Below are positions 9,537 through 45,652 of a DNA stretch of 64,000 bases, in pieces. Below the pieces are notes generated by a model, which saw nothing but the letters and a program-made list of their open reading frames with translations, was not told the origin of the DNA and ran no database searches. The stretch spans positions 40,307-104,306 of the forward strand of contig JAIYAW010000005.1 of assembly GCA_027488835.1 (NCBI GenBank). Reading direction: 5' to 3'. Each line of letters starts with the position of its first letter. The stretch's first letter is position 1. The DNA is from Bacteroidota bacterium (lineage in GTDB: Bacteria > Bacteroidota > Bacteroidia > NS11-12g > UBA955). The position numbers and the translations under genes are program-made.

Positions 9537-10493
9537 ATGAGAAAATTTGAAATATTAGGTAGCAAAGACACACGAAGTGGTTTCGGTGCGGGATTATTAG
9601 AAGCTGGACAAGCCGACGAAAATGTAGTTGCACTTTGTGCCGACTTAACAGGGTCGTTAATGATGGATGCATTCAAAGATGCTTTTCCTACAAGATTTAT
9701 CCAAGCAGGTATTGCCGAAGCAAACATGATGGGTGTAGCTGCAGGATTGGCTATTGGTGGTAAGGTTCCATTTACTGGAACTTTTGCTAACTTTTCAACT
9801 GGTCGTGTGTACGATCAAATTCGTCAAAGCATTGCATATAGCCATACCAATGTGAAGATTGCTGCATCGCATGCGGGTTTAACATTGGGGGAGGATGGTG
9901 CTACACACCAAATTTTGGAAGATATTGGGTTGATGAAAATGTTGCCTGGCATGACTGTTATCAATCCATGCGATTACAATCAAACAAAAGCGGCAACAAT
10001 TGCCATTGCGAAAATGAATGGTCCCGTTTATTTGCGTTTTGGTAGACCAAAATGGCCTGTATTTATTTCAGAAGATACCCCATTTGTAATTGGAAAAGCA
10101 TTAATGCTAAATGAAGGAACTGACGTAAGTATTTTTGCTACAGGTCATTTGGTATGGAAAGCAATTGAAGCGGGTCATATTTTGGCTGAAAAGGGCATTA
10201 GTGCTGAAATTATCAATATTCATACAATAAAACCTCTTGATATTGATGCTGTAATTACATCAGCGAAGAAAACCGGTTGTGTAGTAACTGCAGAAGAGCA
10301 TCAAATGAATGGCGGATTGGGAGATAGTATTGCACAATTGTTGGCCTTGAAAATGCCTACGCCGTTAGAAATGGTGGCGGTGAATGATAGCTTCGGTGAA
10401 AGTGGAACTCCAGATGAATTGTTGGTGAAGTACCACCTCGATAGCCAAGATGTTGCCGATGCAGCCGTTCGCGCTATAGCAAGAAAAATATAA
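9537..10493 (+). CDS. Transketolase, C-terminal (pyrimidine-binding/C-terminal domain) subunit
   Basis: FIQAGIAEANMMGVAAGLAIGGKVPF and HAGLTLGEDGATHQ motifs of the transketolase Pyr and C-terminal domains; 318 aa. Confidence 0.88.
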   Translation: MRKFEILGSKDTRSGFGAGLLEAGQADENVVALCADLTGSLMMDAFKDAFPTRFIQAGIAEANMMGVAAGLAIGGKVPFTGTFANFSTGRVYDQIRQSIAYSHTNVKIAASHAGLTLGEDGATHQILEDIGLMKMLPGMTVINPCDYNQTKAATIAIAKMNGPVYLRFGRPKWPVFISEDTPFVIGKALMLNEGTDVSIFATGHLVWKAIEAGHILAEKGISAEIINIHTIKPLDIDAVITSAKKTGCVVTAEEHQMNGGLGDSIAQLLALKMPTPLEMVAVNDSFGESGTPDELLVKYHLDSQDVADAAVRAIARKI

Positions 10494-10504
10494 CCTATAA
10501 CAAA

Positions 10505-11194
10505 TTAAGCAGTTTTTTGAATGGCCTCTAAAAGGGCCATTTTTTTTGCACGCGATATTTTAATTCTAGTATCATTATTCATAATAACCTCATCAGTACT
10601 GAAAGATTTAACATGGTCAAGGTTTACCGCGTAAGATCGGTGAACCCTTACAAATGTCTCAGGGAAATTATGAATAATGGATTTGATAGTTTTAGAAATT
10701 GTATAGAATTTATTATTGGTATACAAATTTGAATAAGAACCATAGGCTTCAATAAAAACAATATTGTTATATTGTAATTTAGTAATTGACTTATGATCTT
10801 TTATAACAATGTGATTCTTTACGTTTGATTTTTCATCACTTTTTATTTGTTTTTGTATGCGCTCTGAAAAGAAATTAAAATCACATTCAAGGCTGTCTAG
10901 CAACAAGTAATCATAAAAACCTTGTCTTATAGATTCAATTGCGTAGTCGGCGTTTTCTGAAACCATAATCAGATGAATGTTTTTTCTGGTTATTTCTTTC
11001 AAGCGAATTTCAGTTTCAAGAATATTGAAATTCTCTTTATCAACAAAGAGGTATATTTTGTCTGATGACGTGAAATTCTTTTCTCCATTGACTTTATCAA
11101 GGGATTTAATTCTTGCATTTGAAAATTTAGCACAAATTAAGTCGCTAATTTTTTTAGTATTAAATTGGTTATTGAATTGAATTAAAAATATCAT
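10505..11194 (-). CDS. LytTR-family DNA-binding regulator with a degenerate N-terminal receiver-like domain
   Basis: C-terminal LytTR signature (NIVFIEAYGSYSNLYT...FVRVHRSYAVNLDHV). The N-terminal approx 120 aa resemble a REC fold (IYLFVDKE, HLIMVSENAD, GFYDYLLL) but lack the N-terminal acidic pair. Confidence 0.8.
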   Translation of the reverse strand: MIFLIQFNNQFNTKKISDLICAKFSNARIKSLDKVNGEKNFTSSDKIYLFVDKENFNILETEIRLKEITRKNIHLIMVSENADYAIESIRQGFYDYLLLDSLECDFNFFSERIQKQIKSDEKSNVKNHIVIKDHKSITKLQYNNIVFIEAYGSYSNLYTNNKFYTISKTIKSIIHNFPETFVRVHRSYAVNLDHVKSFSTDEVIMNNDTRIKISRAKKMALLEAIQKTA

Positions 11195-11644
11195 CTCCGT
11201 TTTAAATTATTATTTACGTACAATCAAAAAAGCATCGTACTTTTTTGTATGATGTAGAATATCATCTACAAAAATAACCTAATTTTGAATGTAATATTTT
11301 ATAATATTGTAAGATAATTGTTAATTAATGTATTTTTTTCAAGAAATTATATTTCAATAACTTATGCGATTTTTTTTGAGAAATATTGGATTTTGGTACA
11401 AAAAAAATTATAAAATCAAACAATATATAGAAATCGAGGTTCATTTTACATTGTATAAAATTTGTTTCTAATGACTTTCCAAGATATCAATTTAGAATCT
11501 TTTTCTGATTTATTTCGATTACCAAGTACTTTCGAATAATGTGGTACTCCAGATGAAATATTGGTGGAGTACCACTCGGATAGCCAAGAAGTTGCTGATT
11601 TCGCAATCTTTGCTTTTGTTAGAAATGTATAACCTATTACAAAA

Positions 11645-12334
11645 CTAAGCCGTTTTTTGAATGGCCTCTAAAAGAGCCGTTTTCTTTGCGCGCGATATTT
11701 TTATTTTAGTATCATTATTCATAATGACTTCATCCGTGCTGAAAGATTTAACATAGTCAAGATTTACTGCGTAAGAGCGGTGAACCCGAACAAATGTCTC
11801 TGGGAAATTATGAATAATTGATTTGATAGTTTTAGAAATTGTATAGAATTTTTGGTCGGTATATAAGTTTGAATATGAACCATAAGCCTCTATGAAAACA
11901 ATATCGTTAAATTGTAATTTGGTAATTGACTTATGATCTTTAATAATGATGTGATTTTTTACGGTTGATTTTTCATCACTTGTTATTTGTTTTTGTATGC
12001 GATCTGAAAAGAATTTAAAATCATATTCAAGACTGCCTAATAACAGGTAATCATAGAAACCATGTCTTAAGGATTCAATTGCATGATCTGCGTTTTCCGA
12101 AACCATAATTAGATAAATGTTTTTTCTGTTAATACCTTTTAAGTATGTTTCTGGTGAAAGAATATCGAAATTTTTCGTATCAACAAACAGGTAAATTCTA
12201 TCTGTTGATGAAGAATCTTTACCCGCATTGAATTTATCAATAGATTTAATTCTTGCATTTGAAAATTTCGCACAAATTAAGTCGCTAATTTTTTTAGTGT
12301 AAAATAGATTGTCGAATTGAATTAAAAATATCAT
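11645..12334 (-). CDS. LytTR-family regulator, tandem paralogue of 10505-11194
   Basis: About 80% amino-acid identity to the neighbouring LytTR gene. The identical start context gaattgaattaaaaatatcat is shared by both copies. The track ORF is extended to a TTG at 12364; the ATG at 12334 (MIFLIQFD...) corresponds to the start of copy 1. Confidence 0.8.
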   Translation of the reverse strand: MIFLIQFDNLFYTKKISDLICAKFSNARIKSIDKFNAGKDSSSTDRIYLFVDTKNFDILSPETYLKGINRKNIYLIMVSENADHAIESLRHGFYDYLLLGSLEYDFKFFSDRIQKQITSDEKSTVKNHIIIKDHKSITKLQFNDIVFIEAYGSYSNLYTDQKFYTISKTIKSIIHNFPETFVRVHRSYAVNLDYVKSFSTDEVIMNNDTKIKISRAKKTALLEAIQKTA

Positions 12335-12576
12335 TTTCCTTGGTTTTGAATTATTGTTGTTCAAGTCAGCATAGTTAAAATAATTACGGACAAGAATATT
12401 TTCTACAAAAATAATTCACAAGTACAAGTCAAATTTCTTGAAGTTGTTGCATAATTAAATTCGGTACATATTAGATAGAGGCTCGGTAATAAATAATTGA
12501 TAAGTATATTTTTAACATTTTTATTGTTCAGGTATTTCGGATTTTGGAACAAAAAAATGACTAAAACTGAACTGTA

Positions 12577-13788
12577 TTAATTCAGTTTTAAGTTCTGAAA
12601 GTATACATTCGGACTGATTCCCGTTATTTTCTTGAAACTAACGTAATATGTGGTCCGTGAATTGAATCCTGAAAAATTACCAATTGCCTCCATCGTGTAT
12701 TTTTTGTTGCTGTTATCTTTTAACAATTTTATGGAATGATCGATTCGCATTTCACAAATGATATCGGGAAAGGATTTTTTGATGTGGTTATTAAGAATAA
12801 ATGAAATATGATGACTAGGAATTGAAAAATGGTTTGCAGCCATGGCAATTGAAAATTCAGGATTTAAATACAATTGTTTTTCATTTATTTCTGAAATGAT
12901 AGTTTGTGCCAAAATAAACTCTTTGTTATCAACTTCATCGGTATCATTTTTAAATGATTTAAAATTAGGTAGTGATTTTTCATTATCAGCTATGGTTTTA
13001 TAATTGATTTTTGGTAAACCATACAGAAGTAAAGGATTCAATAATATGTATGTTGCTAGTATTATAATAGACAAACCGGTTACAAATAATGGGATTTTTA
13101 AAAATAAATTCGAATGAACAGTAATGGTAGAAATAAAAATTGAATTATAAATTGATGAATATGCAACTGAAACAACAAAAACCGAAATTACAATTAAAAA
13201 TAACTTTAACCATTTTAAAACAAATTGTGATTTAATTTCACTATTGAGTTGTATGCTTCTGATATAGTTTCGCCACGCAAACAATGTATATGATACATAT
13301 AATAGAACCCGCAAAACAAAATTGTATTTTGCTTTCATTAATGTACCTGGATAATTGGCTATTTTTGTATAATCTGTGGATATTGTACTTGCCCAATATT
13401 GCCAGTGTTGAGGTCCTCCCGAATAATAATCCAAATTATCAATAATTGCATAAACAGCCGGAATTAAATGGAGCAAATCGATTTTCGAGAAGTTATAATT
13501 TTCATCTAAATTTATGACTACATAAAAATAGATTGCAGGTTGAACGATATAATAGAAAGGGGCAAAACCCCTTAACAAAAATGGTACGTTACCAATCAAT
13601 CCACTGATTACAAAAACATGTACCAAATGATAATTGATTATGCCCCAAAACATTGCAAACATTAACCATTTGAGTTTTGGATTTCCATTTTTTTCAATTA
13701 AAATTGTTCCACACGCAATAAAGGTTATTAATACAGCAGTAATCAGCATTACTATCACTGAAGTATCCTTAGGAATAACGAAAATCAT
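12577..13788 (-). CDS. Polytopic membrane protein with C-terminal AraC-type HTH DNA-binding domain
   Basis: N-terminal approx 260 aa with about 6-7 hydrophobic helices. The C-terminal approx 100 aa carries a typical AraC/XylS HTH (EKQLYLNPEFSIAMAANHFSIPSHHISFILNNH...GFNSRTTYYVSFKKITG). Confidence 0.8.
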   Translation of the reverse strand: MIFVIPKDTSVIVMLITAVLITFIACGTILIEKNGNPKLKWLMFAMFWGIINYHLVHVFVISGLIGNVPFLLRGFAPFYYIVQPAIYFYVVINLDENYNFSKIDLLHLIPAVYAIIDNLDYYSGGPQHWQYWASTISTDYTKIANYPGTLMKAKYNFVLRVLLYVSYTLFAWRNYIRSIQLNSEIKSQFVLKWLKLFLIVISVFVVSVAYSSIYNSIFISTITVHSNLFLKIPLFVTGLSIIILATYILLNPLLLYGLPKINYKTIADNEKSLPNFKSFKNDTDEVDNKEFILAQTIISEINEKQLYLNPEFSIAMAANHFSIPSHHISFILNNHIKKSFPDIICEMRIDHSIKLLKDNSNKKYTMEAIGNFSGFNSRTTYYVSFKKITGISPNVYFQNLKLN

Positions 13789-13944
13789 CTCAAATATATA
13801 AATTTATAGGGAGTTAAAAATAAGCAAGTATTTTGGTAGTTTGATTTGGTAAATTTTTTTCGAAAATAATGCATTTGCCTTAATTTGCGATTATTCAAAG
13901 ATCACTTTTTTTCAATAAATAAGTAGATAATTTGGAATACGAAT

Positions 13945-14095
13945 TTATTTGGATTTTGTGTTTTGTAGGCATTCACTTTGTGCAATACCCGTTATTATCT
14001 TGAAGCACACATAAAAAAGTTCTTTGATGAGTATTAATTTACCTGGTTATTTGATGATAAAAGCAAATACCCAATATTCATTGTGCCAAAATTGT
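13945..14095 (-). pseudogene. Chimeric remnant of a third membrane-AraC paralogue (3' end fused to a mid-gene segment; approx 650 bp internal deletion)
   Basis: 13945-14035 aligns base-by-base with the 3' end of gene 15155-16366 (15158-15250). 14029-14095 aligns with 15908-15975 of the same gene. The intervening portion is missing and no intact reading frame remains. Confidence 0.45.
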
Positions 14096-14470
14096 AAATG
14101 ACACAGTGAATATGGGCAATGTCTGTGCTGTAATGTAACTAGGTAAAATAACGAGAATTATTTTAAAGAAACATTGATGTGAAATTAAGTCCAGGTTTTA
14201 TTATGTGGCTCCTATCTAAATAATTTCTTTTAACTGTTTAAACTTCATACTAAAGTGAAAAATTCCATATTTTTATCATAACGAAGAAATGGTTTCTGTT
14301 CTAAAAAGCAATTTAAGGAATGTACGGATTTGCAACAAAAATGTCCTAAAATCATAAAAAATAGTTTGTATCGTATTGTTTTTTAATCTTTTAAATTATT
14401 TGTTGTTGCATTTTGATAAATCACACAATTTTCAAAATATGCAGAATCGATTAGAATTTAACTTTGTGAA

Positions 14471-15115
14471 ATGAAAAATTTGGGTGAGATAATTGATGTA
14501 GATATTTTTCTATTGGATGAAGTTTCTTTGTATGAAAATAATTTATGGCAAGAAAATTATAAATTACACCTTGCATTAAACAAGTTTAAATCGTTTAAAA
14601 TTGGAATACCCTTCGATTGCAAAAATAAATTGTTAGGACCAGTGATTCAGTTTATTGATTCAATCAATTTGAATGGTAGTTATTTTGTATATTTCAATAT
14701 TAACAATGAGGAAAATTTATTAGCATTAGTAAATAATTATCACTCAGAATTGACAAATCATATTTTTTACATTTTGCCTGATAAAAAAGTGAAATACTCA
14801 AAACTATCAAAAAATTTTTGGGACATACAATTGTTGGGATTTGAAATTCATATACTAAAATGTGACAAGATAGAAGAATGCAGGTTATCGCCTTCAATTA
14901 TGAATAAATATTGGCGGAAAGGAGCGATAGTTGGTATTGTAGGATTTACAAAGAATCCTATTCGGTTATTTAGAAAAAGAAAATTACAACAGTTGATAAG
15001 ACAAAAAATATTTGATTATTGGATAACTGAAATCATAGATCAAAAAGACGTGACTTATTTAAATGAAATCAAACTAAAAGCAGAATTGCTTAATTTTCGT
15101 GTTTTAAATAAGTAA
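14471..15115 (+). CDS. Hypothetical protein (no recognisable domain)
   Basis: 214-aa ORF, the only plus-strand ORF in the island. It is Lys/Asn-rich and is preceded by approx 680 bp of noncoding AT-rich DNA. Coding status is uncertain. Confidence 0.4.
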   Translation: MKNLGEIIDVDIFLLDEVSLYENNLWQENYKLHLALNKFKSFKIGIPFDCKNKLLGPVIQFIDSINLNGSYFVYFNINNEENLLALVNNYHSELTNHIFYILPDKKVKYSKLSKNFWDIQLLGFEIHILKCDKIEECRLSPSIMNKYWRKGAIVGIVGFTKNPIRLFRKRKLQQLIRQKIFDYWITEIIDQKDVTYLNEIKLKAELLNFRVLNK

Positions 15116-15154
15116 ATTAAATATTAAAATGATCAATACGGCTGATTATTCTTT

Positions 15155-16366
15155 CTATGGATTTTTTATGTTTTGAATGTATTCACTTGGTGTAATACCC
15201 ATTATTTTCTTGAAGCTCACATAAAAAGTAGTTCGTGAATTGAATCCAGAAATATTACCAATTGCCTCCATAGTGTATTTTTTATTTCGATTGTCTTTTA
15301 ATAGTTGAATGGCATGATCAATTCGCATTTCAGAAACGATATCGGGAAATGATTTTTTAATGTGATTGTTAAGAATAAATGAAATATGATGATTTGGTAT
15401 TGAAAAATGTTTCGCAGCCGTATTCAATGAAAAATCCGGATTTAAATACAATTGTTTTTCGTTGATCTCGGAAATAATACTATTGGCCAAAATATTTTCT
15501 TTATTATCACTGTTAGTCATATCATTTTTGAATGATATAAATTTTGATAACGCATTTGAATTGTCAATTATCGTTTTGTAATTGATTCTAGGTAAACCGT
15601 AGAGTAAAATCGGATTAAATAAAATATATCCCGACAGTGCCAAAATAGATAAGCCAATTAAGCTAATTGTAATCAAAACGGAGACATTGGAATTGTCCAT
15701 TATTGTATCAAGATAGTTAAAATTACTTACAGAACTTAAACTAACCGTTACAACAAAAACCGACATGATAATCAAAAATAATCTTAACCATTTTAGAACG
15801 AATTGATCTTTAATTTCTTGATTGTTTTTGACATAATGAAAATAGTATCGCCAAGCGAATAAAGTGTATGAAATCTTTAACAAATCAAGGAAAATAAAAT
15901 GATATTTGGATAGTATTAATTTGCCTGGATATTTGGTCAAGAAAGAAAAATCATTAGATATTGTATTTGCCCAAAATTCCCAATGGTTAGGGCCTCCGCA
16001 ATAAAATCCCCAATTATCTATAACCGACAAGACGAAGGGAATTAAATGCAGTAAATCTTTTTTTGTAAAATTATAGTTTTCATTCAGGGTTACTATAACA
16101 TAAAAATAAATTGCAGGCTGAATTATATAATAATAAGGATACAATCCCCTAATGAAAAATGGGAAATCTTTAATTAACCCCAAGGATATAAAAAGAATTA
16201 CGGAAAAATGAAGACCAATCTCTGTAAATATGATAAAAAGCAGCCACTTCAGTTGTGGATTACAATTTTTTTCAATTAAAATTGCTCCACACGCCAAAAA
16301 TGTAACTAGCACTGCTAAAATAAGCAGTGACTGCACGAAATAGCTTGGTGAAATAAAGAAAATCAT
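15155..16366 (-). CDS. Polytopic membrane protein with C-terminal AraC-type HTH domain (paralogue of 12577-13788)
   Basis: Same length (403 aa) and architecture as 12577-13788. Alignable throughout, including EINEKQLYLNPDFS and FPDI..EMRIDH in the HTH region. Confidence 0.8.
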   Translation of the reverse strand: MIFFISPSYFVQSLLILAVLVTFLACGAILIEKNCNPQLKWLLFIIFTEIGLHFSVILFISLGLIKDFPFFIRGLYPYYYIIQPAIYFYVIVTLNENYNFTKKDLLHLIPFVLSVIDNWGFYCGGPNHWEFWANTISNDFSFLTKYPGKLILSKYHFIFLDLLKISYTLFAWRYYFHYVKNNQEIKDQFVLKWLRLFLIIMSVFVVTVSLSSVSNFNYLDTIMDNSNVSVLITISLIGLSILALSGYILFNPILLYGLPRINYKTIIDNSNALSKFISFKNDMTNSDNKENILANSIISEINEKQLYLNPDFSLNTAAKHFSIPNHHISFILNNHIKKSFPDIVSEMRIDHAIQLLKDNRNKKYTMEAIGNISGFNSRTTFYVSFKKIMGITPSEYIQNIKNP

Positions 16367-34253: not shown

Positions 34254-34254
34254 A

Positions 34255-34905
34255 GTGAGCCTCAATAAAATTGAACCTTTTGTAATTGGGATTACCGGTC
34301 TATCAGGTTCCGGCAAATCTTTCTATGTCAATTTATTGAAAGAAAAACTTGGCAATCATGTTTGTGTAGTTGGTTTTGACGATTATTATAAGTCATTAGA
34401 TCAGCAAATTACGGATGAAAATGGCGAAACAAATTATGATTTGCCTTCGGCCTTATATCAAGATAAGTTTCATGAAGACCTGCTTAAACTAATTGATTAT
34501 CAAACTGTAGAAATTAAAAAATACCAGTTTGAAAATTACGATGCTCCTGAGGTCACTGAAATTATAAAGCCTGCACCTATTTTGGTGGTTGAAGGATTGT
34601 TTGTGTTGGATTGTCAACCCGTAAATAATTTGTTGAACTTTAGAATATTTATGGATTGTAATTTGGAGCTTTGTTTCAGTCGCAGATTATTGAGAGATGT
34701 TACTCAAAGAAATATTCCTGAAATCAAAAGCAGATATCAATGGACAAACCATGTGTTGCCCGCATTTGAAAAATTCATCGTTCCTTACAAAGAAAGCTGT
34801 AATTTAGTAATTGAAAATAATGGAATACCAGATGAAAACATTGAAGCAATTATTGCAAAAATCAAACTGTTGGCACATCCTTCTGTGACGAATAGATTGC
34901 CTTAA
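34255..34905 (+). CDS. udk: Uridine kinase family protein
   Basis: P-loop IGITGLSGSGKSF at the N-terminus; DDYYK, VVEG and RRLLRD segments typical of uridine/cytidine kinase. The start is a GTG overlapping the previous stop. Confidence 0.75.
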   Translation: MSLNKIEPFVIGITGLSGSGKSFYVNLLKEKLGNHVCVVGFDDYYKSLDQQITDENGETNYDLPSALYQDKFHEDLLKLIDYQTVEIKKYQFENYDAPEVTEIIKPAPILVVEGLFVLDCQPVNNLLNFRIFMDCNLELCFSRRLLRDVTQRNIPEIKSRYQWTNHVLPAFEKFIVPYKESCNLVIENNGIPDENIEAIIAKIKLLAHPSVTNRLP

Positions 34906-35878: not shown

Positions 35879-36619
35879 ATGTTCGATGTACAATATATTT
35901 GCTTGCAATCTTGGGTTCCAATTAGAGCCTCTAATAGCAGTGCCTCGGAAATGGTAACATCTTTACTTTTTGGTGAAACTTGCATTGCCGTTGGAGAATT
36001 AGACGATTGGCTTCAAGTTCGAACCAATCACGATGGTTATGCCGGTTTTGTTCCTAAAAATTATGTTTATTTGCTTGAAACGTATGCACATATTCAGTGG
36101 AAAATAGTGGCAGAGCCTTTTACTTACATGATACATAACCAAATGGTTATTCAACTTTCTCCAGGCTCCCGTATCCCTCAAAATAATCATATTTTGATTG
36201 AAGGAAATGAATATGTTTGGAAAAATGGGTTGGGTGTTAAAACCATTGTAAATATGTTGGAACATGCCCAATGGTTTTTGAATACCCCTTATTTGTGGGG
36301 CGGAAGAAGTATTTTTGGCATTGATTGCAGCGGATTAGTTCAAGTATTGGCACAAATGTCAAATCTTAAAATGCCGAGAGATGCATATCAACAAGCGCTA
36401 TGTGGTACAAGGAAAACTTGGAGTAACCGACAGGCCGGTGATTTGTGTTATTTCGAAAATAAAAGTGGCAAAATAACCCATGTTGGAATTTTAATTTCAA
36501 CGGAAAGAATTATTCACGCCTCGGGAAAAGTGAGAATTGATTTCATTACTCCAGAAGGAATTGTGAATAGTCAATCAAATGAACTTACACATAAATTAGC
36601 TGATATTAGAACTTGGTAA
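35879..36619 (+). CDS. C40 (NlpC/P60) family peptidase with N-terminal SH3-like domain
   Basis: Catalytic Cys in GGRSIFGIDCSGLVQ, His in ITHVGIL, plus a downstream His; N-terminal SH3b-like segment. Confidence 0.85.
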   Translation: MFDVQYICLQSWVPIRASNSSASEMVTSLLFGETCIAVGELDDWLQVRTNHDGYAGFVPKNYVYLLETYAHIQWKIVAEPFTYMIHNQMVIQLSPGSRIPQNNHILIEGNEYVWKNGLGVKTIVNMLEHAQWFLNTPYLWGGRSIFGIDCSGLVQVLAQMSNLKMPRDAYQQALCGTRKTWSNRQAGDLCYFENKSGKITHVGILISTERIIHASGKVRIDFITPEGIVNSQSNELTHKLADIRTW

Positions 36620-36623
36620 AATT

Positions 36624-37070
36624 ATGAAACTCGCAGAATATATTGATGAATTTAAAGGGTCTTATCACCCACTTGAAGGAGTGAAATTTGGATTTGAAGC
36701 CTCCCAATCAGAGGCTCATGTTGATTTGACCGTAAACGCCGCAATGACATACATGCAAGGATTGATGATGTCTGGGAAAATTTCGGAAATTCAGAAGTTA
36801 GCAACGGGTGGATCAGAAGCTTTAAAGGACAGTCAATATTTTCAAGATTTACTTCAACAATGTGCAAATAGCTATTACGGGTTGGATTGGGATATTGAAA
36901 GGAAAAAGGTTTTGGCAGGAAGTATTTTGGCTTTCGTGTTGGAGGGATTGAGGGTGAAATTTCAATCTGGAGGATACGAATCGAATGCACAAGGCGTCAT
37001 GAAATTTCTTGGAATTGATTTGGGTATCATGGGCAAAATGGGTGGCATGTTTGGTAAATTTTTTAAGTAA
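36624..37070 (+). CDS. Hypothetical 148-aa protein with glycine-rich amphipathic C-terminal tail
   Basis: ORF 4 bp after the C40 gene and ending 3 bp before the next ORF. C-terminus LGIDLGIMGKMGGMFGKFFK. No known domain recognised. Confidence 0.4.
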   Translation: MKLAEYIDEFKGSYHPLEGVKFGFEASQSEAHVDLTVNAAMTYMQGLMMSGKISEIQKLATGGSEALKDSQYFQDLLQQCANSYYGLDWDIERKKVLAGSILAFVLEGLRVKFQSGGYESNAQGVMKFLGIDLGIMGKMGGMFGKFFK

Positions 37071-37073
37071 TTA

Positions 37074-39566
37074 ATGAAAAAGGAAAAGCACATCATTCAA
37101 TCACTGTTGTTTTGGGTGTTTTTTCTAGTTTGTACATCGGTTGATGCGCAATACAGCGATTTTGTGAGGCCCGAAAAGGCAGTAAAAGGTTTTGATTATC
37201 ACATTCTTATCACGAGCAACAGTGATTTTAAATATTTAAAAGCGCATATTCCGCATTTTTTAAACATAGAAAAACTCAGAATTGATGGTCCGGTTGATGT
37301 GAATCTTCTGTCGGAGATTGCAGGGAAATTCGACAATTTGGAAGAATTGCAACTGCGACAGTTTCAAGGTATTATTTCGGATGTGGATCTAGAAAACATT
37401 GAATGGATTCCACTTGTGTATTTATATGTCCCTCAAAATAGAGAAGATGCATTGCTGTTAAACAATTATTGGAGTCGGTTTAACCGAATTTCGTTAGAAT
37501 TTGAAGTTGTTCCGGATCAATATGATTTCATGAAAACTTGGAAATCATGCAAAGAACTTCAAATTATTGCACCATGGACGAGATCGGAATTGGATACAGC
37601 CTTGCGTGAAATATCTAAATTGGTTCCCAAACTTCAAAAATTGTCGATTTCTGTAAATAATGTTGAATACCTAACCCAATCGATTCATCGATTTAATAAG
37701 TTAACGAGACTTACCTTAATAGATGCTGCTAGTTTGTCAACCGGAGTTCCAATTGAACTTTTAAATGAAATATTAACACCCGTGAAAATCGGCAACAAAG
37801 ATGTGAATTTGGTGTCGGGCGTGAATAAAACAGTTATCAACAAGGCCATTCATATGCCTTTGGTTTTTTTAACAAACAATACCGAGTTGTTAACTTCAGA
37901 ATTGAAACATATCAAAAAGATTTTCCCAGATGGGGAAGTGGTTCAAGATTTTGAATGGATTGAACCAGAACAAAAGTTAGATTTCGTAGAAAATTTGGGA
38001 TTTTCACCAATTAAAAACAGGGGTAACTTTCCCAATCCTATTTCCAAGCCATTGATAGAAGATTTCCAAGAAGGGACATTTTATTTTGAGGGAAACAACA
38101 AAAGCAACCAAATTTTCGAAGGTGAGAGAAAATGGGCCATATTGGTACCGAAAGGTGGCATTGTAAATGCATCCGGCGAGGAATACCTGAATAACTATAC
38201 CATTAAAGTGAAAGTGATGACGAATCAAGAACGACTTCTGGCTTATGCACCGAATTTGGTTTATGATTCGGCACAGCAGCTGTTTCAGCTAAATCCATCG
38301 TTTTTGTTCGACATACAGGCATTTGATGGGAAAGAACTTTTAAATATTAAACCGGGTTGTTTTGTGGAGGTACATTTTGTAGGGACATTGAATCAAAATG
38401 CACATTTCTATGCTTTGAAAAACCAGAAATGGGTACATTTCTACGAGTATGATTATTCATTTTCAGACGATCATTTGGCCAAAATTGATTTCTTTCAATT
38501 TTATCAAGCTTCCCAAAATGCCAAATTTACCGGTGGTTCAGATATAAGCAGCTTGGATGAAAAACTTGAAAATAAAGGGTACTACTATTTGCTTAAAGAG
38601 AATGAAACAAAAAGTTGGGTCATACCATTCAAAAATCAATACGTACAAAAAATATCAAAGATTGCCGACGAAAAAAGCTTTTTATTAAAAAGAGGCTCTT
38701 CCTTAATTGGTGTGAGAAACTTTGTTTCAGAAAGGCCTACAGAAAAAGGCCTTTATGAGCTGAGAATCTACGATAAAACCAAAAAGTTATTTCCAGAATT
38801 GAAATCATTTGAGAATTACCCTTTGGTTTTTAAAACCAATATGGCTAAGAAAGATGTTACCCTTCAGTTTTTTAAAGCCATGAAGTTTTTTGATGTACGC
38901 ATTAGAGAATTTGGAGTAGGTTATGCGTTGGAATTAAAATCAAACGAAGGATTGTGGCAAATTCAATTGTTAGAGCCCAAAGAGCGGTATAAAACCTCGC
39001 CTAGATTTGCAAAAAGCGAACAGAAGAAATTTTCAAGTAAAATACAAATGTATTTGTCTCTTAGGGGTGGTAAAATAAATGCGTTGGAAAGTACGCAAAA
39101 ATCAATTGCGTTGAATGAACTACAAGATTCCAAATCTGTCATTTTTGGGAGTAATAATATTCCAAAAGCCAAAATGAAACGCAGTTTTCTAATTCGCAGT
39201 TTTGGGCGATTTGCTTTTGCATCAGCCGATTCAATAGCCTCAGCCAAATTTGTTGAATTGATACCTTGCGAACCAGGTAAAATTCCTTTAAAAGTGAATC
39301 AATTTGTTGTGATTTATGATAACCCAATGTCGACCATTTGTTTGGGTAAATCGGATCGCTATAGCATCGACATTGCAGAAAGTAATCTTTTATACATTGC
39401 ATGTAAAGATGAGTTTGATCGTGTTTTTGTTCTAACCGGCGATAAATTCAGAAAACTAAATATTCAAAACAATACTTTGACTTATATAGATATGGTTCAA
39501 CTTCCTGAACAATTCTTGAGCCAAGAAATCATCCTTAACCTATTTAAAATCAAACGCAAAAATTAA
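37074..39566 (+). CDS. Secreted 830-aa hypothetical protein with N-terminal leucine-rich-repeat-like region
   Basis: Signal peptide (…LVCTSVDA-QY). Repeated LxxLxL segments (LEELQL, LQKLSI, LTRLTL) in the first approx 230 aa; the remainder is unassigned. Its stop overlaps the start of the symporter gene. Confidence 0.5.
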   Translation: MKKEKHIIQSLLFWVFFLVCTSVDAQYSDFVRPEKAVKGFDYHILITSNSDFKYLKAHIPHFLNIEKLRIDGPVDVNLLSEIAGKFDNLEELQLRQFQGIISDVDLENIEWIPLVYLYVPQNREDALLLNNYWSRFNRISLEFEVVPDQYDFMKTWKSCKELQIIAPWTRSELDTALREISKLVPKLQKLSISVNNVEYLTQSIHRFNKLTRLTLIDAASLSTGVPIELLNEILTPVKIGNKDVNLVSGVNKTVINKAIHMPLVFLTNNTELLTSELKHIKKIFPDGEVVQDFEWIEPEQKLDFVENLGFSPIKNRGNFPNPISKPLIEDFQEGTFYFEGNNKSNQIFEGERKWAILVPKGGIVNASGEEYLNNYTIKVKVMTNQERLLAYAPNLVYDSAQQLFQLNPSFLFDIQAFDGKELLNIKPGCFVEVHFVGTLNQNAHFYALKNQKWVHFYEYDYSFSDDHLAKIDFFQFYQASQNAKFTGGSDISSLDEKLENKGYYYLLKENETKSWVIPFKNQYVQKISKIADEKSFLLKRGSSLIGVRNFVSERPTEKGLYELRIYDKTKKLFPELKSFENYPLVFKTNMAKKDVTLQFFKAMKFFDVRIREFGVGYALELKSNEGLWQIQLLEPKERYKTSPRFAKSEQKKFSSKIQMYLSLRGGKINALESTQKSIALNELQDSKSVIFGSNNIPKAKMKRSFLIRSFGRFAFASADSIASAKFVELIPCEPGKIPLKVNQFVVIYDNPMSTICLGKSDRYSIDIAESNLLYIACKDEFDRVFVLTGDKFRKLNIQNNTLTYIDMVQLPEQFLSQEIILNLFKIKRKN

Positions 39567-41059
39567 TGTCTCCGCTACTTATATTTATAGGACTCGCTAG
39601 TTACTTTTTAATTCTCCTTTCAATTGGCTATTTCACGAGTAAATCAGGCGGTGAGGATGGATATTTCTTAGGTAATAAACAAAGTATTTGGTGGCTTGTA
39701 GCAATTGGAATGCTTTCAGACTCTATGAGTGGGGTTAGCTTTATTTCTGTACCCGGGAATGTTTTTGCTGCTAAGTTTTACTATTTGCAAGTGGTTCTTG
39801 GTTATGTCATTGGTTATTTGGTTATTGCCTATATTTTATTGCCTTTATACTACAAACACAATGTAACAAGTATTTATAGTTATTTAAATACCCGATTTGG
39901 AACCATTCATCAAAAAACGGGTGCCTTATTTTTTGTATTGTCGCGATTAACGGGTAGTGCAGGTCGGTTGTTTTTAACTGCAGCAATTTTGCAAAAGTTT
40001 TTATTCTCACAATGGGATATTCCATTTGTGATTACAGTTGCCTTTATCATTGGGCTAATTTTGGCATACACCATTAAAGGAGGAATTAGAACATTGGTTT
40101 TTACCGATGCTTTGCAGAGTGTATTTTTGGTTGGAGGACTTTTGGTGTGTATTGCAATTATGATTTCCAAAACACCTTCGGTGGTAAATCAAGGTGCATT
40201 TAATGTTGTAGCTGATTCGGAATTGTCACAAATATTTAATTTTAATTTTTGGCAAAAAACCTTCGTCTTAAAACAAATTATTGGAGGGATGTTTTTATGC
40301 ATTGCCATGACAGGACTCGATCAAAATATGATGCAGAAAAACCTTAGCTGTAAGTCCTTGGGCGAAGCCCAAAAGAACATGCTAACAACTGCTGGTGTTG
40401 TGTTTTTTGTGAATTTATTATTCCTTTCATTGGGAATTTTCATGATAGAATATTTGAAATCAGTGGATCCAGTTTTGTTAGATCCTAACCACTACGCCGA
40501 TAAAAAAGTACTCACAGATATGTTTTTTCCTCATATTGCCTTGGATTTACTTGGACCAATTGCGGGAATGGCATTTGTACTGGGGTTATCAGCCGCAACT
40601 TTTTCAAGTGCAGATAGTGTTTTAACAACCTTAACAACAAGCACATATATTGATGTTTTGGGAATAGATAGTAGAGAAGATTTAACTATAGAACAAAAGC
40701 ACAAGAGAAGGGTACTCTTGCACATTGCATTCTCGGTGTTGCTATTAATGGCAATATTGGTTTTTTACGCATTTGTAAAAACCACGGTAATCAATTTGGT
40801 ATTAGACATTGCAAATTATACCTATGGTCCATTGTTGGGTTTGTTTACATTGGGTATATTTACCAAAGCCAAACCCAAAGGGTGGGGCGTTTTGATTATT
40901 AGTTTATTGGCTCCTTTGCTGTGCTACTTTTTGGTAAATTACATAGCAAAAGATGCCAAATACCAAATAGGATATGAATTGTTGCTCATTAATGGTTCGA
41001 TTTCGTTTATTGGTTATTACCTATTGCATTACTTTCAAAACAAACGCGAATTGCAGTAA
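39566..41059 (+). CDS. Sodium:solute symporter (SSS) family transporter
   Basis: Approx 13 predicted TM helices with SSS-family segments; 497 aa. ATGA-type overlap with the upstream gene. Confidence 0.85.
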   Translation: MSPLLIFIGLASYFLILLSIGYFTSKSGGEDGYFLGNKQSIWWLVAIGMLSDSMSGVSFISVPGNVFAAKFYYLQVVLGYVIGYLVIAYILLPLYYKHNVTSIYSYLNTRFGTIHQKTGALFFVLSRLTGSAGRLFLTAAILQKFLFSQWDIPFVITVAFIIGLILAYTIKGGIRTLVFTDALQSVFLVGGLLVCIAIMISKTPSVVNQGAFNVVADSELSQIFNFNFWQKTFVLKQIIGGMFLCIAMTGLDQNMMQKNLSCKSLGEAQKNMLTTAGVVFFVNLLFLSLGIFMIEYLKSVDPVLLDPNHYADKKVLTDMFFPHIALDLLGPIAGMAFVLGLSAATFSSADSVLTTLTTSTYIDVLGIDSREDLTIEQKHKRRVLLHIAFSVLLLMAILVFYAFVKTTVINLVLDIANYTYGPLLGLFTLGIFTKAKPKGWGVLIISLLAPLLCYFLVNYIAKDAKYQIGYELLLINGSISFIGYYLLHYFQNKRELQ

Positions 41060-41091
41060 TTGATTGACGCTAAGCTAACTGCTGCGCCTTT

Positions 41092-41222
41092 TTAGAAGCA
41101 TTGCTTGCGTTTGGATGAACTCTCATTTAGTTTTTAAAAGCACTGCATGCGTTTAGAAGAGCTTCACTCGTTTAGTGTTTAGAAGCATGCGTGTGTTGAG
41201 AAGAGCTTCACTCGTCTAGTTT
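41092..41222. repeat. Imperfect tandem repeat, approx 44 bp x 3
   Basis: Units tttagaagcattgcttgcgtttggatgaactctcatttagtt / tttaaaagcactgcatgcgtttagaagagcttcactcgtttagtg / tttagaagcatgcgtgtgttgagaagagcttcactcgtctagtt. The 16-mer gaagagcttcactcgt is exact in units 2 and 3. Confidence 0.8.
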
Positions 41223-41240
41223 AAAGGTTAATTAGAGCAA

Positions 41241-41580
41241 AACAACCTTTATAATCACTCATCAACCTTCATAAACCCTTATAATTACTCATAAACGTTT
41301 ATAAACCTTAGAATTCCCCTAGCAAACCAACCTTCATAAACCCTTATAATCACTCATAAACGTTTATAAACCCTAAAATTCTCCTAGCAAACCAACCTTC
41401 ATAAACCCTTATAATCGCTCTTAAACGTTTATAAACCCTAAAATTCTCCTAACAAACCAACCTTCATAAACCCTTATAATTACTCATAAACGTTTATAAA
41501 CCCTAAAATTCTCCTAGCAAACCAACCTTCATAAACCCTTATAATCACTCATAAACGTTTATAAACCTTAGAATTACCGA
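41241..41580. repeat. Tandem direct repeat, 65-bp unit in about 5.2 copies, in a convergent intergenic region
   Basis: The motif caaccttcataaacccttataat(c/t)actcataaacgtttataaaccctaaaattctcctagcaaac recurs at 41263, 41328, 41393, 41458 and 41523, an exact 65-bp period. Copies differ by only 1-4 substitutions, and a truncated copy lies at each end. Confidence 0.9.
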
Positions 41581-41581
41581 C

Positions 41582-42979
41582 TTACATGTACCCCAAAGTT
41601 TTGAGCATACTCTTATAACTTTGTTCTTTTGAAAATAAGCGGAAATAATAATCGCCGTTTTCATCGCGGTCAATGATTACATGTTTGGGTGCAGGGGTTA
41701 AACAATGTTGAATACCACCATAACCGCCAATACTCTCCTGATACGCACCTGTATGAAAGAATCCAATGTAAAGTGGGTCCTCGGCATCATATTTGGGTAA
41801 GTAAATGGCATTGACATGTTGTTCAGAGTTGTAGTAGTCATCACTATCACAAGTAATTCCACCTAGAAGTACCCTTTCTTGTTCCTCTTCCCAACGGTTA
41901 ACTGGAAGCATTATAAACTTCTTGTTGATTGCCCATGCATCTGGTAATTGTGTCATAAAGCTAGAGTCAATCATGTTCCATTTTTCCCTGTCGTTTTGTG
42001 ACTTCTGGTCAAGTACACTGAATACCGCTCCACCTGCTTCACCTACAGTGAATGAACCAAACTCAGTAAAGATATCGGGTTCTGGTATCTGATTTTCTAC
42101 ACAAACTTGTTTGATTTGGCTAACGATTTCGTTTGCCATGTATTCGTAGTCGTACTCAAAGTTTAAGGTGTTCTTGATAGGGAAACCTCCTCCAATATTG
42201 AGGGTATCTAGGTCTGGGCATTCTTTTTTTAGCTCACAATAAACTTTCAAACACTTATGTAATTCATTCCAATAGTAAGCGGTATCGTAAATGCCTGTAT
42301 TGATAAAAAAGTGAAGCATTTTTAATTTCACATTCTTATTCTTTTTTATAACGTTTCTATAGAATGGCACTATGTCTTTATATCCAATGCCTAATCTACT
42401 TGTATAGAATTCAAACTTAGGTTCTTCTTCCGCCGCAATGCGTATACCACAGGTTATTTGTTTATCAGTATGCTCAAGTAACTCACTTAACTCTCTTTGG
42501 TTGTCAAATACTGGAATTACATTTGTCCAATCATTATTGATAAGGTTGGCTATGTTCTCGAGATAGTTTTCTCTTTTAAAACCGTTACATACAACGTAGC
42601 TATCTTTACTTACTTTGCCTTGCTCATAAAGTGTTTCAATGATGTTTATATCAAAGGCGGATGATGTTTCTAAGTGTACATTGTTTTTTAGTACTTCGTC
42701 AAGTGTATGTTGGAAGTGGTTGCTTTTGGTGCAATAACAATAGAAGTATTTGCCTTGGTATTCTGCCTTTGCAATTGCCACGTTGAACCAAGAACGAGCT
42801 TTCTTAATGTTCTCACTTATCTTCGGTAAGTAAGTAAATTTTAAGGGTGTTCCATATTGGCGTATTAGATCCATTAAAGGTATTTCATGGAACTCAAGAT
42901 GTCCATTATCGTCTAAATCAAATTCTGAAGTTGGGAAATCAAAAGTTTGTTTAATTAAGTCGATATATTTATTTTTCAT
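41582..42979 (-). CDS. speA: PLP-dependent fold-III decarboxylase, most likely a short-form biosynthetic arginine decarboxylase (SpeA-like)
   Basis: NIGGGFPI glycine-rich motif and HTGAYQESIGGYGGIQHCL near the C-terminus, as in Orn/Lys/Arg decarboxylases and SpeA; 465 aa. Substrate assignment is inferred. Confidence 0.6.
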   Translation of the reverse strand: MKNKYIDLIKQTFDFPTSEFDLDDNGHLEFHEIPLMDLIRQYGTPLKFTYLPKISENIKKARSWFNVAIAKAEYQGKYFYCYCTKSNHFQHTLDEVLKNNVHLETSSAFDINIIETLYEQGKVSKDSYVVCNGFKRENYLENIANLINNDWTNVIPVFDNQRELSELLEHTDKQITCGIRIAAEEEPKFEFYTSRLGIGYKDIVPFYRNVIKKNKNVKLKMLHFFINTGIYDTAYYWNELHKCLKVYCELKKECPDLDTLNIGGGFPIKNTLNFEYDYEYMANEIVSQIKQVCVENQIPEPDIFTEFGSFTVGEAGGAVFSVLDQKSQNDREKWNMIDSSFMTQLPDAWAINKKFIMLPVNRWEEEQERVLLGGITCDSDDYYNSEQHVNAIYLPKYDAEDPLYIGFFHTGAYQESIGGYGGIQHCLTPAPKHVIIDRDENGDYYFRLFSKEQSYKSMLKTLGYM

Positions 42980-45637: not shown

Positions 45638-45652
45638 TTTATTTATAATTCC

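Follow-up and report, generated by a model that had tools for sequence, protein, structure and literature searches.

Several types of direct repeat are known from the non-coding DNA of bacteria. Minisatellites of the variable-number tandem repeat (VNTR) kind, familiar from multiple-locus VNTR analysis (MLVA), are built of head-to-tail units of tens of base pairs whose copies are alike and which are absent from, or different in, close relatives. Repetitive extragenic palindromes (REPs) and bacterial interspersed mosaic elements (BIMEs), described in Enterobacteria and Pseudomonas, occupy 3' intergenic positions, often between convergent genes, and their transcripts can form hairpins. REPs are DNA palindromes of 20 to 40 nt that occur in hundreds of dispersed copies, often as inverted pairs, and are associated with REP-associated tyrosine transposases (RAYTs). 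Clustered regularly interspaced short palindromic repeats (CRISPR) are likewise regular direct repeats in non-coding DNA. The TAACTGA arrays of Beggiatoaceae, Cyanobacteria and some Bacteroidetes are short, AT-rich, intergenic direct repeats, made of perfect heptamers that lie mostly just upstream of start codons and at many loci per genome (PMC4679880). Within the Bacteroidota, the BrickBuilt element of Porphyromonas gingivalis belongs to the miniature inverted-repeat transposable elements (MITEs) and contains a spacer-free, imperfect intergenic minisatellite of 23-nt units between leader and tail terminal inverted repeats; it has promoter activity and is present in 19 copies in 2.35 Mb, or 1 per 123 kb (PMC4596501). 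Among sequences that act as RNA, Rho utilization (rut) sites are C-rich, G-poor, unstructured and untranslated tracts of at least 70-80 nt (PMC6407284). Here we describe a tandem array of 65-bp units from a Bacteroidota bacterium (GenBank assembly GCA_027488835.1, contig JAIYAW010000005.1, positions 40,307 to 104,306; hereafter the window, 64,000 nt). The array lies in the 522-bp spacer between the stop codons of two convergent genes, one for a sodium:solute symporter (stop at window position 41059) and one for a speA-like decarboxylase (stop at 41582). We argue that it is probably a young, lineage-specific, higher-order minisatellite that was amplified from a pre-existing proto-repeat and is largely neutral.

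The array is regular in period and composite in internal structure. Tandem Repeats Finder (TRF) reports a period of 65 bp over 41263-41575, with 4.8 copies, 94% matches, 0% indels and a score of 556, and a repeat search places the copy starts at 41263, 41328, 41393, 41458 and 41523, a spacing of exactly 65 bp. With up to two mismatches allowed, five matches to a 38-mer taken from the unit are found, against 0.00 expected from 100 shuffles. Any two copies differ at 1 to 7 positions per 65 and are thus 89-98% identical. The unit is itself made of shorter repeats with a sub-period of about 10 bp, as seen in its self-identity at lags of 10, 20 and 30 (32, 33 and 29 of 65 positions, respectively, compared with about 18 to 23 at other lags), and every 65-bp unit contains the perfect 10-bp palindrome GTTTATAAAC. 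The leading partial unit, which we call "copy 0", corresponds to the first 30 nt of the unit minus a 10-nt segment. The original prediction described the gap between the two genes as nearly all repeats, with three 44-bp units followed by the 65-bp array, and our recount by TRF, repeat search and copy alignment agrees with this description. It agrees as well with the two exact occurrences of a 16-mer (GAAGAGCTTCACTCGT) claimed for the 44-bp family, which we find at 41156 and 41200. For the 65-bp units the exact period stood; the range of one to four substitutions had to be widened to the one to seven given above, and the fifth of the five claimed copies is only 53 nt long. The stated figure of 5.2 copies is accounted for by the degenerate 30-nt copy 0, and the reiterated cataaac core pointed out within each unit fits the internal periodicity of about 10 bp.

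Comparison with relatives shows that the array is absent where its edges are present. The decarboxylase and the symporter assign the window to uncultured, mostly freshwater Bacteroidota, and 25 loci retain the two genes as a convergent pair, with gaps of 7-529 bp; the gap in the window is the largest among these pair-keeping loci. Among relatives with sequence across the spacer, the nearest is a metagenome contig (L082) whose symporter and decarboxylase are 95% and 97% identical to those of the window in amino acid sequence and 87-88% identical in DNA. Its gap measures 191 bp and is without the 65-bp array. It nevertheless aligns to the window at a central piece of the spacer (TTTAAAGGkTAATyAGA..AAAACA) and again at the right edge of the array, over the 30 nt that lead up to the stop codon of the decarboxylase gene (TAAACsTTTATAAACCTTAGAATT..ACTTACAT). 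The 3' part of the fifth unit (TAAACGTTTATAAACCTTAGAATT) is orthologous to L082 sequence beside the decarboxylase stop. The L082 spacer also contains a 16-mer, TTATAAACCTTAGAAT, twice, 75 bp apart. The copies of the array are more alike than are the orthologous flanks of the window and L082 (89-98% versus 87-88%), which fits an amplification of resident sequence followed by exchange among copies, in line with the recent expansion or concerted evolution that had been suggested for this array. The variants, too, are arranged as amplification with unequal exchange would leave them: the outer copies 1 and 5 carry the CCTTAGAATT variant that is also found in L082, copies 2-4 carry CCCTAAAATT, and unit position 24 alternates between T and C in a mosaic across the copies.

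Based on these observations, we infer the following history. Ancestrally, the two convergent genes would have been separated by only a short gap. The window and L082 belong to a sub-lineage in which the usual bidirectional hairpin terminator is missing and the spacer is AT-rich, C-rich in the sense of the symporter, and made of CnTATAAAC-like motifs of about 10 bp; it would already have held a direct proto-repeat. Replication slippage, unequal recombination between direct repeats, or both could then have multiplied a 65-bp segment until about five copies were present, after which exchange between copies would have shuffled the few variant positions. Any transcription of the array would merely extend either convergent gene by an untranslated 3' tail, and no sequence-specific function is required by this account; the most plausible incidental effect would be passive entry of Rho on symporter read-through RNA, which is A/C-rich, G-poor and unstructured like the transcripts onto which Rho loads.

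Among the systems introduced above, the array most resembles VNTR minisatellites, and a minisatellite is also the best fit among the four roles that the original prediction had put forward. Like them, it consists of head-to-tail, non-coding units of tens of base pairs that are alike among themselves and missing from a close relative; unlike the typical VNTR, its unit is built of sub-repeats of about 10 bp and shows an extreme strand asymmetry (90 C versus 12 G). We use the label VNTR-type for this anatomy, strain-to-strain variation in copy number being the property that defines a VNTR and the contigs from the same species not spanning the array. It shares with BrickBuilt its phylum, its lack of spacers, its imperfect intergenic repeats and, in a relative, the presence of another array that has a short piece of flank in common with it; it differs in having no inverted repeats, no promoter box, a single known locus and a unit of 65 rather than 23 nt, with no sequence similarity between the two. 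The TAACTGA heptamers differ from it in motif, and the 65-bp unit is found at one locus only and at two 3' ends. REPs and BIMEs, which had been suggested in the form of a genome-wide REP-like element, are not supported: the units here are direct repeats at a single locus, their DNA hairpin is weak (-4.2 kcal/mol), their RNA hairpin relies on G.U pairs, and we find neither a further copy in the 64-kb window, nor dispersal in 1.5 Mb of related loci, nor exact core matches in the sequence collections searched. CRISPR was rejected, as the original prediction had done, since the start-to-start spacing equals the unit length, so that the units abut with zero spacers, and the neighboring genes include no cas genes or Cas domains.

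Table 1. Coordinates of the repeat families, associated sequence features and flanking genes at the symporter/decarboxylase locus (window positions).
Feature	Coordinates	Strand	Basis or remark
Sodium:solute symporter gene, 497 aa	39566..41059	+	Left flank; Pfam SSF, E=1.6e-25; NCBIfam sss superfamily, E=1.5e-42
Convergent spacer	41060..41581	.	Sole long non-coding convergent spacer of the window
44-bp family, units at 41089, 41133 and 41177	41089..41220	+	Alignment, 85% mean column identity
Central weak stem-loop: TAAAGGTT, 14-nt loop, AACCTTTA	41222..41251	.	Lies between the two repeat families
C-rich, G-poor tract	41228..41597	+	All 78-nt windows with (C+1)/(G+1) >=4
Copy 0, degenerate leading partial unit, 30 nt	41233..41262	+	Copy alignment
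Four full 65-bp units, consensus CAACCTTCATAAACCCTTATAATCACTCATAAACGTTTATAAACCCTAAAATTCTCCTAGCAAAC	41263..41522	+	TRF, repeat search, copy alignment
Fifth unit, partial, 53 nt	41523..41575	+	Followed by unique sequence beside the decarboxylase stop
Orn/Arg decarboxylase-like gene (pyridoxal phosphate [PLP]-dependent; speA-like), 465 aa	41582..42979	-	Right flank; Pfam Orn_Arg_deC_N, E=1.6e-16

The spacers of the other relatives vary widely in length and content, although most are short gaps that hold a strong bidirectional hairpin terminator. In L002, L083, L085 and L087 the gap is about 90-130 bp (91 bp in L002) and contains a bidirectional hairpin terminator composed of an A-tract, a stem-loop and a T-tract, whereas in L003 and L004 it is about 13 bp. 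Tandem arrays unrelated to the one in the window occupy the same spacer in L082 (4623-4663), L090 (4576-4613), L091 (4600-4663), L095 (4567-4729) and L103 (4632-4689), with periods of 15-23 bp and, in L095, a higher-order period of 69 bp. Wherever an array can be placed against a terminator hairpin or the central stem-loop, it lies on the decarboxylase side. A distant GC-rich relative (L152, 4600-4818) carries a 93-bp repeat in 2.4 copies downstream of its symporter homologue, each unit with a GC-rich hairpin (CCCGAC..GTCGGG) and a REP-like look. At another convergent spacer, between an NTP_transf_4 and a GNAT gene, L002, the closest species-representative metagenome-assembled genome, has 219 bp (561-790) in place of the 15 bp found at the orthologous position of the window (45638-45652), and this spacer holds a 31-bp repeat in 3.9 copies (TTTATAATCCGTCTAATCTCTCTAATCTCTG; 96% matches) made of similar YTCTAATC motifs of about 9-10 bp.

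Several observations weigh against a largely neutral minisatellite. First, 522 bp without function is unusual where all other convergent spacers of the window measure 75 bp or less (-4, 5, 11, 15, 39 and 75 bp), as in a very compact genome. Second, the strand asymmetry of the array is extreme, and the hairpins of its minus strand beat those of shuffled sequences (z -3.9). Third, tandem arrays are found in the symporter/decarboxylase spacer at 6 of 25 loci, whereas of the 189 remaining convergent spacers in the same set of loci only 3 hold one (p=9e-5 by Fisher's test; 5e-4 leaving out the window), in a comparison whose loci are not phylogenetically independent and whose background takes in more distant taxa; the recurrence of arrays in one spacer could reflect selection rather than tolerance. 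Fourth, a 24-nt stretch (24-mer ACCWAMCTTCATAAACCCTTATAA) that flanks the L002 array and adjoins the stop codon of the GNAT gene agrees with the beginning of the 65-bp unit at 22 of 24 positions, with 18 exact, and this match hints at a dispersed family. The explanations that these points invite are considered below, from the better to the less well supported.

We first considered whether the array is a selected Rho-dependent terminator or insulator, in which the C-rich spacer would recruit Rho to read-through RNA from the symporter and shield the decarboxylase gene, and amplification would lengthen the loading zone. We regard this as unlikely; the following points speak for it. The plus strand of 41263-41581 (319 nt) contains 125 A, 90 C, 12 G and 92 T, so that A+C makes up 67%. 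It belongs to a C>G tract (41228-41597; GC skew -0.735) that surpasses every other such tract of the 64 kb, whichever the strand, both in length and in degree; (C+1)/(G+1) over 78 nt peaks at 12. As RNA, the plus-strand unit is unstructured (-2.7 kcal/mol), and the array is untranslated: no open reading frame (ORF) wholly within the spacer exceeds 22 amino acids. The spacer has no intrinsic terminator: we find no terminator-like site in 40800-41800, and the best local fold of the spacer (-19.3 kcal/mol) has no flanking A or U tracts, compared with -20 to -46 kcal/mol with tracts in ten relatives. A plus-strand transcript would therefore resemble published rut tracts, as it would be C-rich, G-poor, unstructured and untranslated, would exceed 80 nt and would follow a gene (PMC6407284). 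Each Rho subunit binds 5 nt, with linkers of 4-5 nt and a preference for A and C (PMC12360218). Bacteroidota Rho also carries unusual insertions (PMC12360218).

The spacers of the relatives can be read in the same direction. Ten of them (L002, L083, L085, L087, L088, L090, L091, L095, L098 and L102) contain the A-tract/stem-loop/T-tract hairpin, at -20 to -46 kcal/mol, and show no C bias (skew about 0 to +0.3), whereas the five without a hairpin (the window, L082, L099, L100 and L103) have more C than G in the symporter sense (skew -0.12 to -0.63); both classes are drawn from few lineages, several of them mutually related. From sequence composition, then, the two classes may correspond to intrinsic and Rho-dependent termination, with Rho replacing the hairpin. 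Against a selected Rho element, however, the array departs from rut tracts in being a tandem array rather than unique sequence and in failing both heuristics for regular C-spacing: none of its 281 windows passes the RhoTermPredict pattern (C, with 11-13 nt between, six times), and none of the 281 passes a pattern of YC (pyrimidine followed by C) every 9-11 nt. In addition, the nearest relative, L082, copes with 191 bp and no array, and most convergent pairs in the window are nearly spacer-less, so that dedicated terminators are evidently dispensable. The few and partly related lineages behind the two spacer classes also count against this explanation.

A broader form of the same idea takes the recurrence of arrays at face value. 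The spacer downstream of this polyamine-type decarboxylase would then be a selected, length-tunable module, in which unrelated arrays arose independently in several freshwater Bacteroidota lineages; the arrays would serve as expandable Rho-entry or insulator tracts or else stem from a dispersed family, present in few copies, from which arrays in convergent spacers originate. We hold this, too, to be doubtful, to about the same degree as a selected Rho element. If it were true, the arrays would determine the distance to which convergent transcription reaches into the decarboxylase gene.

Somewhat less probable still is that the array belongs to a family, perhaps mobile, with further copies elsewhere; its members would be MITEs that enclose a minisatellite, as BrickBuilt does, or REP/BIME-like elements inserting into 3' spacers. 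The NTP_transf_4/GNAT spacer of L002, with its array of similar motifs and the flanking 24-nt match to the unit start, speaks for such a family. In a BLAST search against 1.5 Mb of related loci, this match has E=0.002, and its Smith-Waterman score is 38, compared with 18 +/- 2.8 for shuffled sequences; the nhmmer unit profile, on the other hand, rates the L002 site at only E=0.27. We find no second copy in the 64 kb with 38-, 18- and 16-mers allowing mismatches, with self-BLAST or with the nhmmer unit profile, a result compatible with a family as sparse as BrickBuilt (PMC4596501), and none in the 1.5 Mb of related loci except the L082 ortholog. Core 21-, 22- and 18-mers have no exact match in 185,579 species genomes, in Joint Genome Institute (JGI) metagenome contigs or in viral contigs. 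The features of a mobile element are also missing. The ends of the window spacer score 6 for terminal inverted repeats against a shuffle mean of 8.1, and those of the L002 insertion score 8 against 8.5; the spacer has no promoter box; the unit folds weakly as DNA (-4.2 kcal/mol on the minus strand and -1.9 on the plus strand); and the units are arranged head to tail, not inverted. Finally, the orthology of the array edges to the resident L082 spacer favors growth in place over insertion.

We also weighed an RNA function in the 3' untranslated region (UTR) of the decarboxylase mRNA, where five G.U-rich hairpins could block 3'-5' exonucleases, as E. coli REP hairpins do, or yield a 3'-derived small RNA; we judge this improbable. 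The original prediction had named a structured or small RNA locus as a candidate and had proposed folding a unit, which gives a split result: the plus strand is unstructured, as noted above, and the minus strand forms a G.U-rich hairpin of about 16 bp, with energies between -13 and -14.5 kcal/mol and z between -3.2 and -3.9. Every minus-strand unit except a weakened copy 3 folds in this range, and the whole minus-strand spacer folds at -135 kcal/mol (z -3.9). In L090, L091 and L095, too, the array is found between the terminator hairpin and the decarboxylase gene. The hairpin is, however, mostly a consequence of the palindrome GTTTATAAAC together with the 10-bp sub-repeats, and the substitutions in copy 3 weaken it from -14.5 to -9.1 kcal/mol (z -1.4) without compensation, so that we see no sign of selection for the fold; copies as alike as these five give no basis for assessing covariation. 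The nearest relatives do not conserve the element, and Rfam gives no match at gathering score in the window, while at E up to 10 the spacer has two matches to eukaryotic families, far under their gathering scores. We find no sigma-70-like promoter in the spacer and no TAnnTTTG box (the Bacteroidota -7 element) on either of its strands, and the spacer contains no tRNA or tmRNA. A structured or small RNA locus is therefore disfavored by the missing Rfam match, promoter box and conservation.

A function at the level of DNA, such as the protein-binding array that the original prediction had listed, is more improbable again. In this case the 10-bp palindrome, recurring every 65 bp, would be the site of a protein that binds as a dimer, or A-tracts phased at about 10 bp would curve the DNA. 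The perfect palindrome in each unit, the 10-bp internal periodicity and the fact that the L095 array also repeats a palindrome (GATTAATC) are consistent with this idea. Yet the AA/TT spectrum is dominated by harmonics of 65 (4.97, 6.49 and 9.35) with no clear peak at 10.5 bp, there is no switch in GC skew that would signal an origin or terminus, and the element is missing from relatives. By Pfam and NCBIfam, no regulator, partition or replication gene adjoins the array; its neighbors encode the symporter, the decarboxylase, a malate/lactate dehydrogenase, an EamA transporter and a GNAT acetyltransferase.

That the array is an assembly artefact, a collapsed or expanded graph loop written out as tandem repeats, is scarcely credible: short-read assemblies do fail here, but the copies carry specific substitutions in a mosaic, which graph loops do not yield, and an independent assembly reproduces the left junction exactly and then breaks, as expected with truly repeated k-mers. 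The latter is Logan contig L001 (SRR16126838), which matches window 36566-41292 at 100% identity and breaks off after the first 30 nt of copy 1, as expected where a tandem repeat longer than the k-mer interrupts assembly; the right-hand Logan contig of the same sample (L162) starts at about window 41698, inside the decarboxylase gene, and none of the contigs from the same species (L001, L162 and L163) spans the array. The left junction is thus independently confirmed, and the copy number is known from one assembly. The array in turn accounts for the breaks in short-read assemblies here.

The remainder of the spacer is less regular. The 44-bp family is weaker than the 65-bp array by TRF (41122-41220, 2.2 copies, 85%, score 142), and its leftmost unit, at 41089, is the most diverged of the three. 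Its units hold GTTTAG motifs, which are the core motif of the 65-bp array in the opposite orientation, and the 44-bp region folds no better than shuffled sequences (z = -0.8 on the plus strand and +0.1 on the minus strand). The central stem-loop, which falls within the central piece alignable to L082, is also weak, at -5.3 kcal/mol on the plus strand and -8.1 on the minus strand (z about -1), and its right arm (AACCTT) recurs at the start of each 65-bp unit.

The flanking genes and a few other parts of the window deserve brief mention. The decarboxylase has NCBIfam speA-type matches at E=4.6e-55, which are under the curated equivalog cut-off. The symporter gene is the final member of a co-directional trio (36624-41059). 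Directly upstream of it, ORFs of 148 and 830 amino acids occupy 36624-39566, with stop and start codons overlapping at 39566; they have no Pfam or NCBIfam match, and their order is kept in L001, L002 and L082, so the three genes look like an uncharacterised operon. An apparent 648-bp gap at 34254-34901 is occupied by a GTG-start ORF of 216 amino acids. Elsewhere, a tandem gene duplication spans 10399-12355 and 12577-16366. Within it, the DNA of 10399-11211 and 11538-12355 is 84% identical, the 229-amino-acid ORFs at 10505-11194 and 11645-12334 are 83% identical, and the 403-amino-acid ORFs at 12577-13788 and 15155-16366 are 63% identical; the GC content of 12001-16000 is 27.5%, compared with about 35% elsewhere in the window.

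As it stands, the finding matters little: it is a well-documented young minisatellite in a very compact genome, at a convergent spacer that evolves fast, and a possible marker for strain typing. Its wider interest would lie in transcription termination, which is poorly characterised in Bacteroidota. If the recurrence of arrays in this spacer reflects selection, tandem amplification could let Bacteroidota restore or adjust termination between convergent genes rapidly after the loss of a hairpin.

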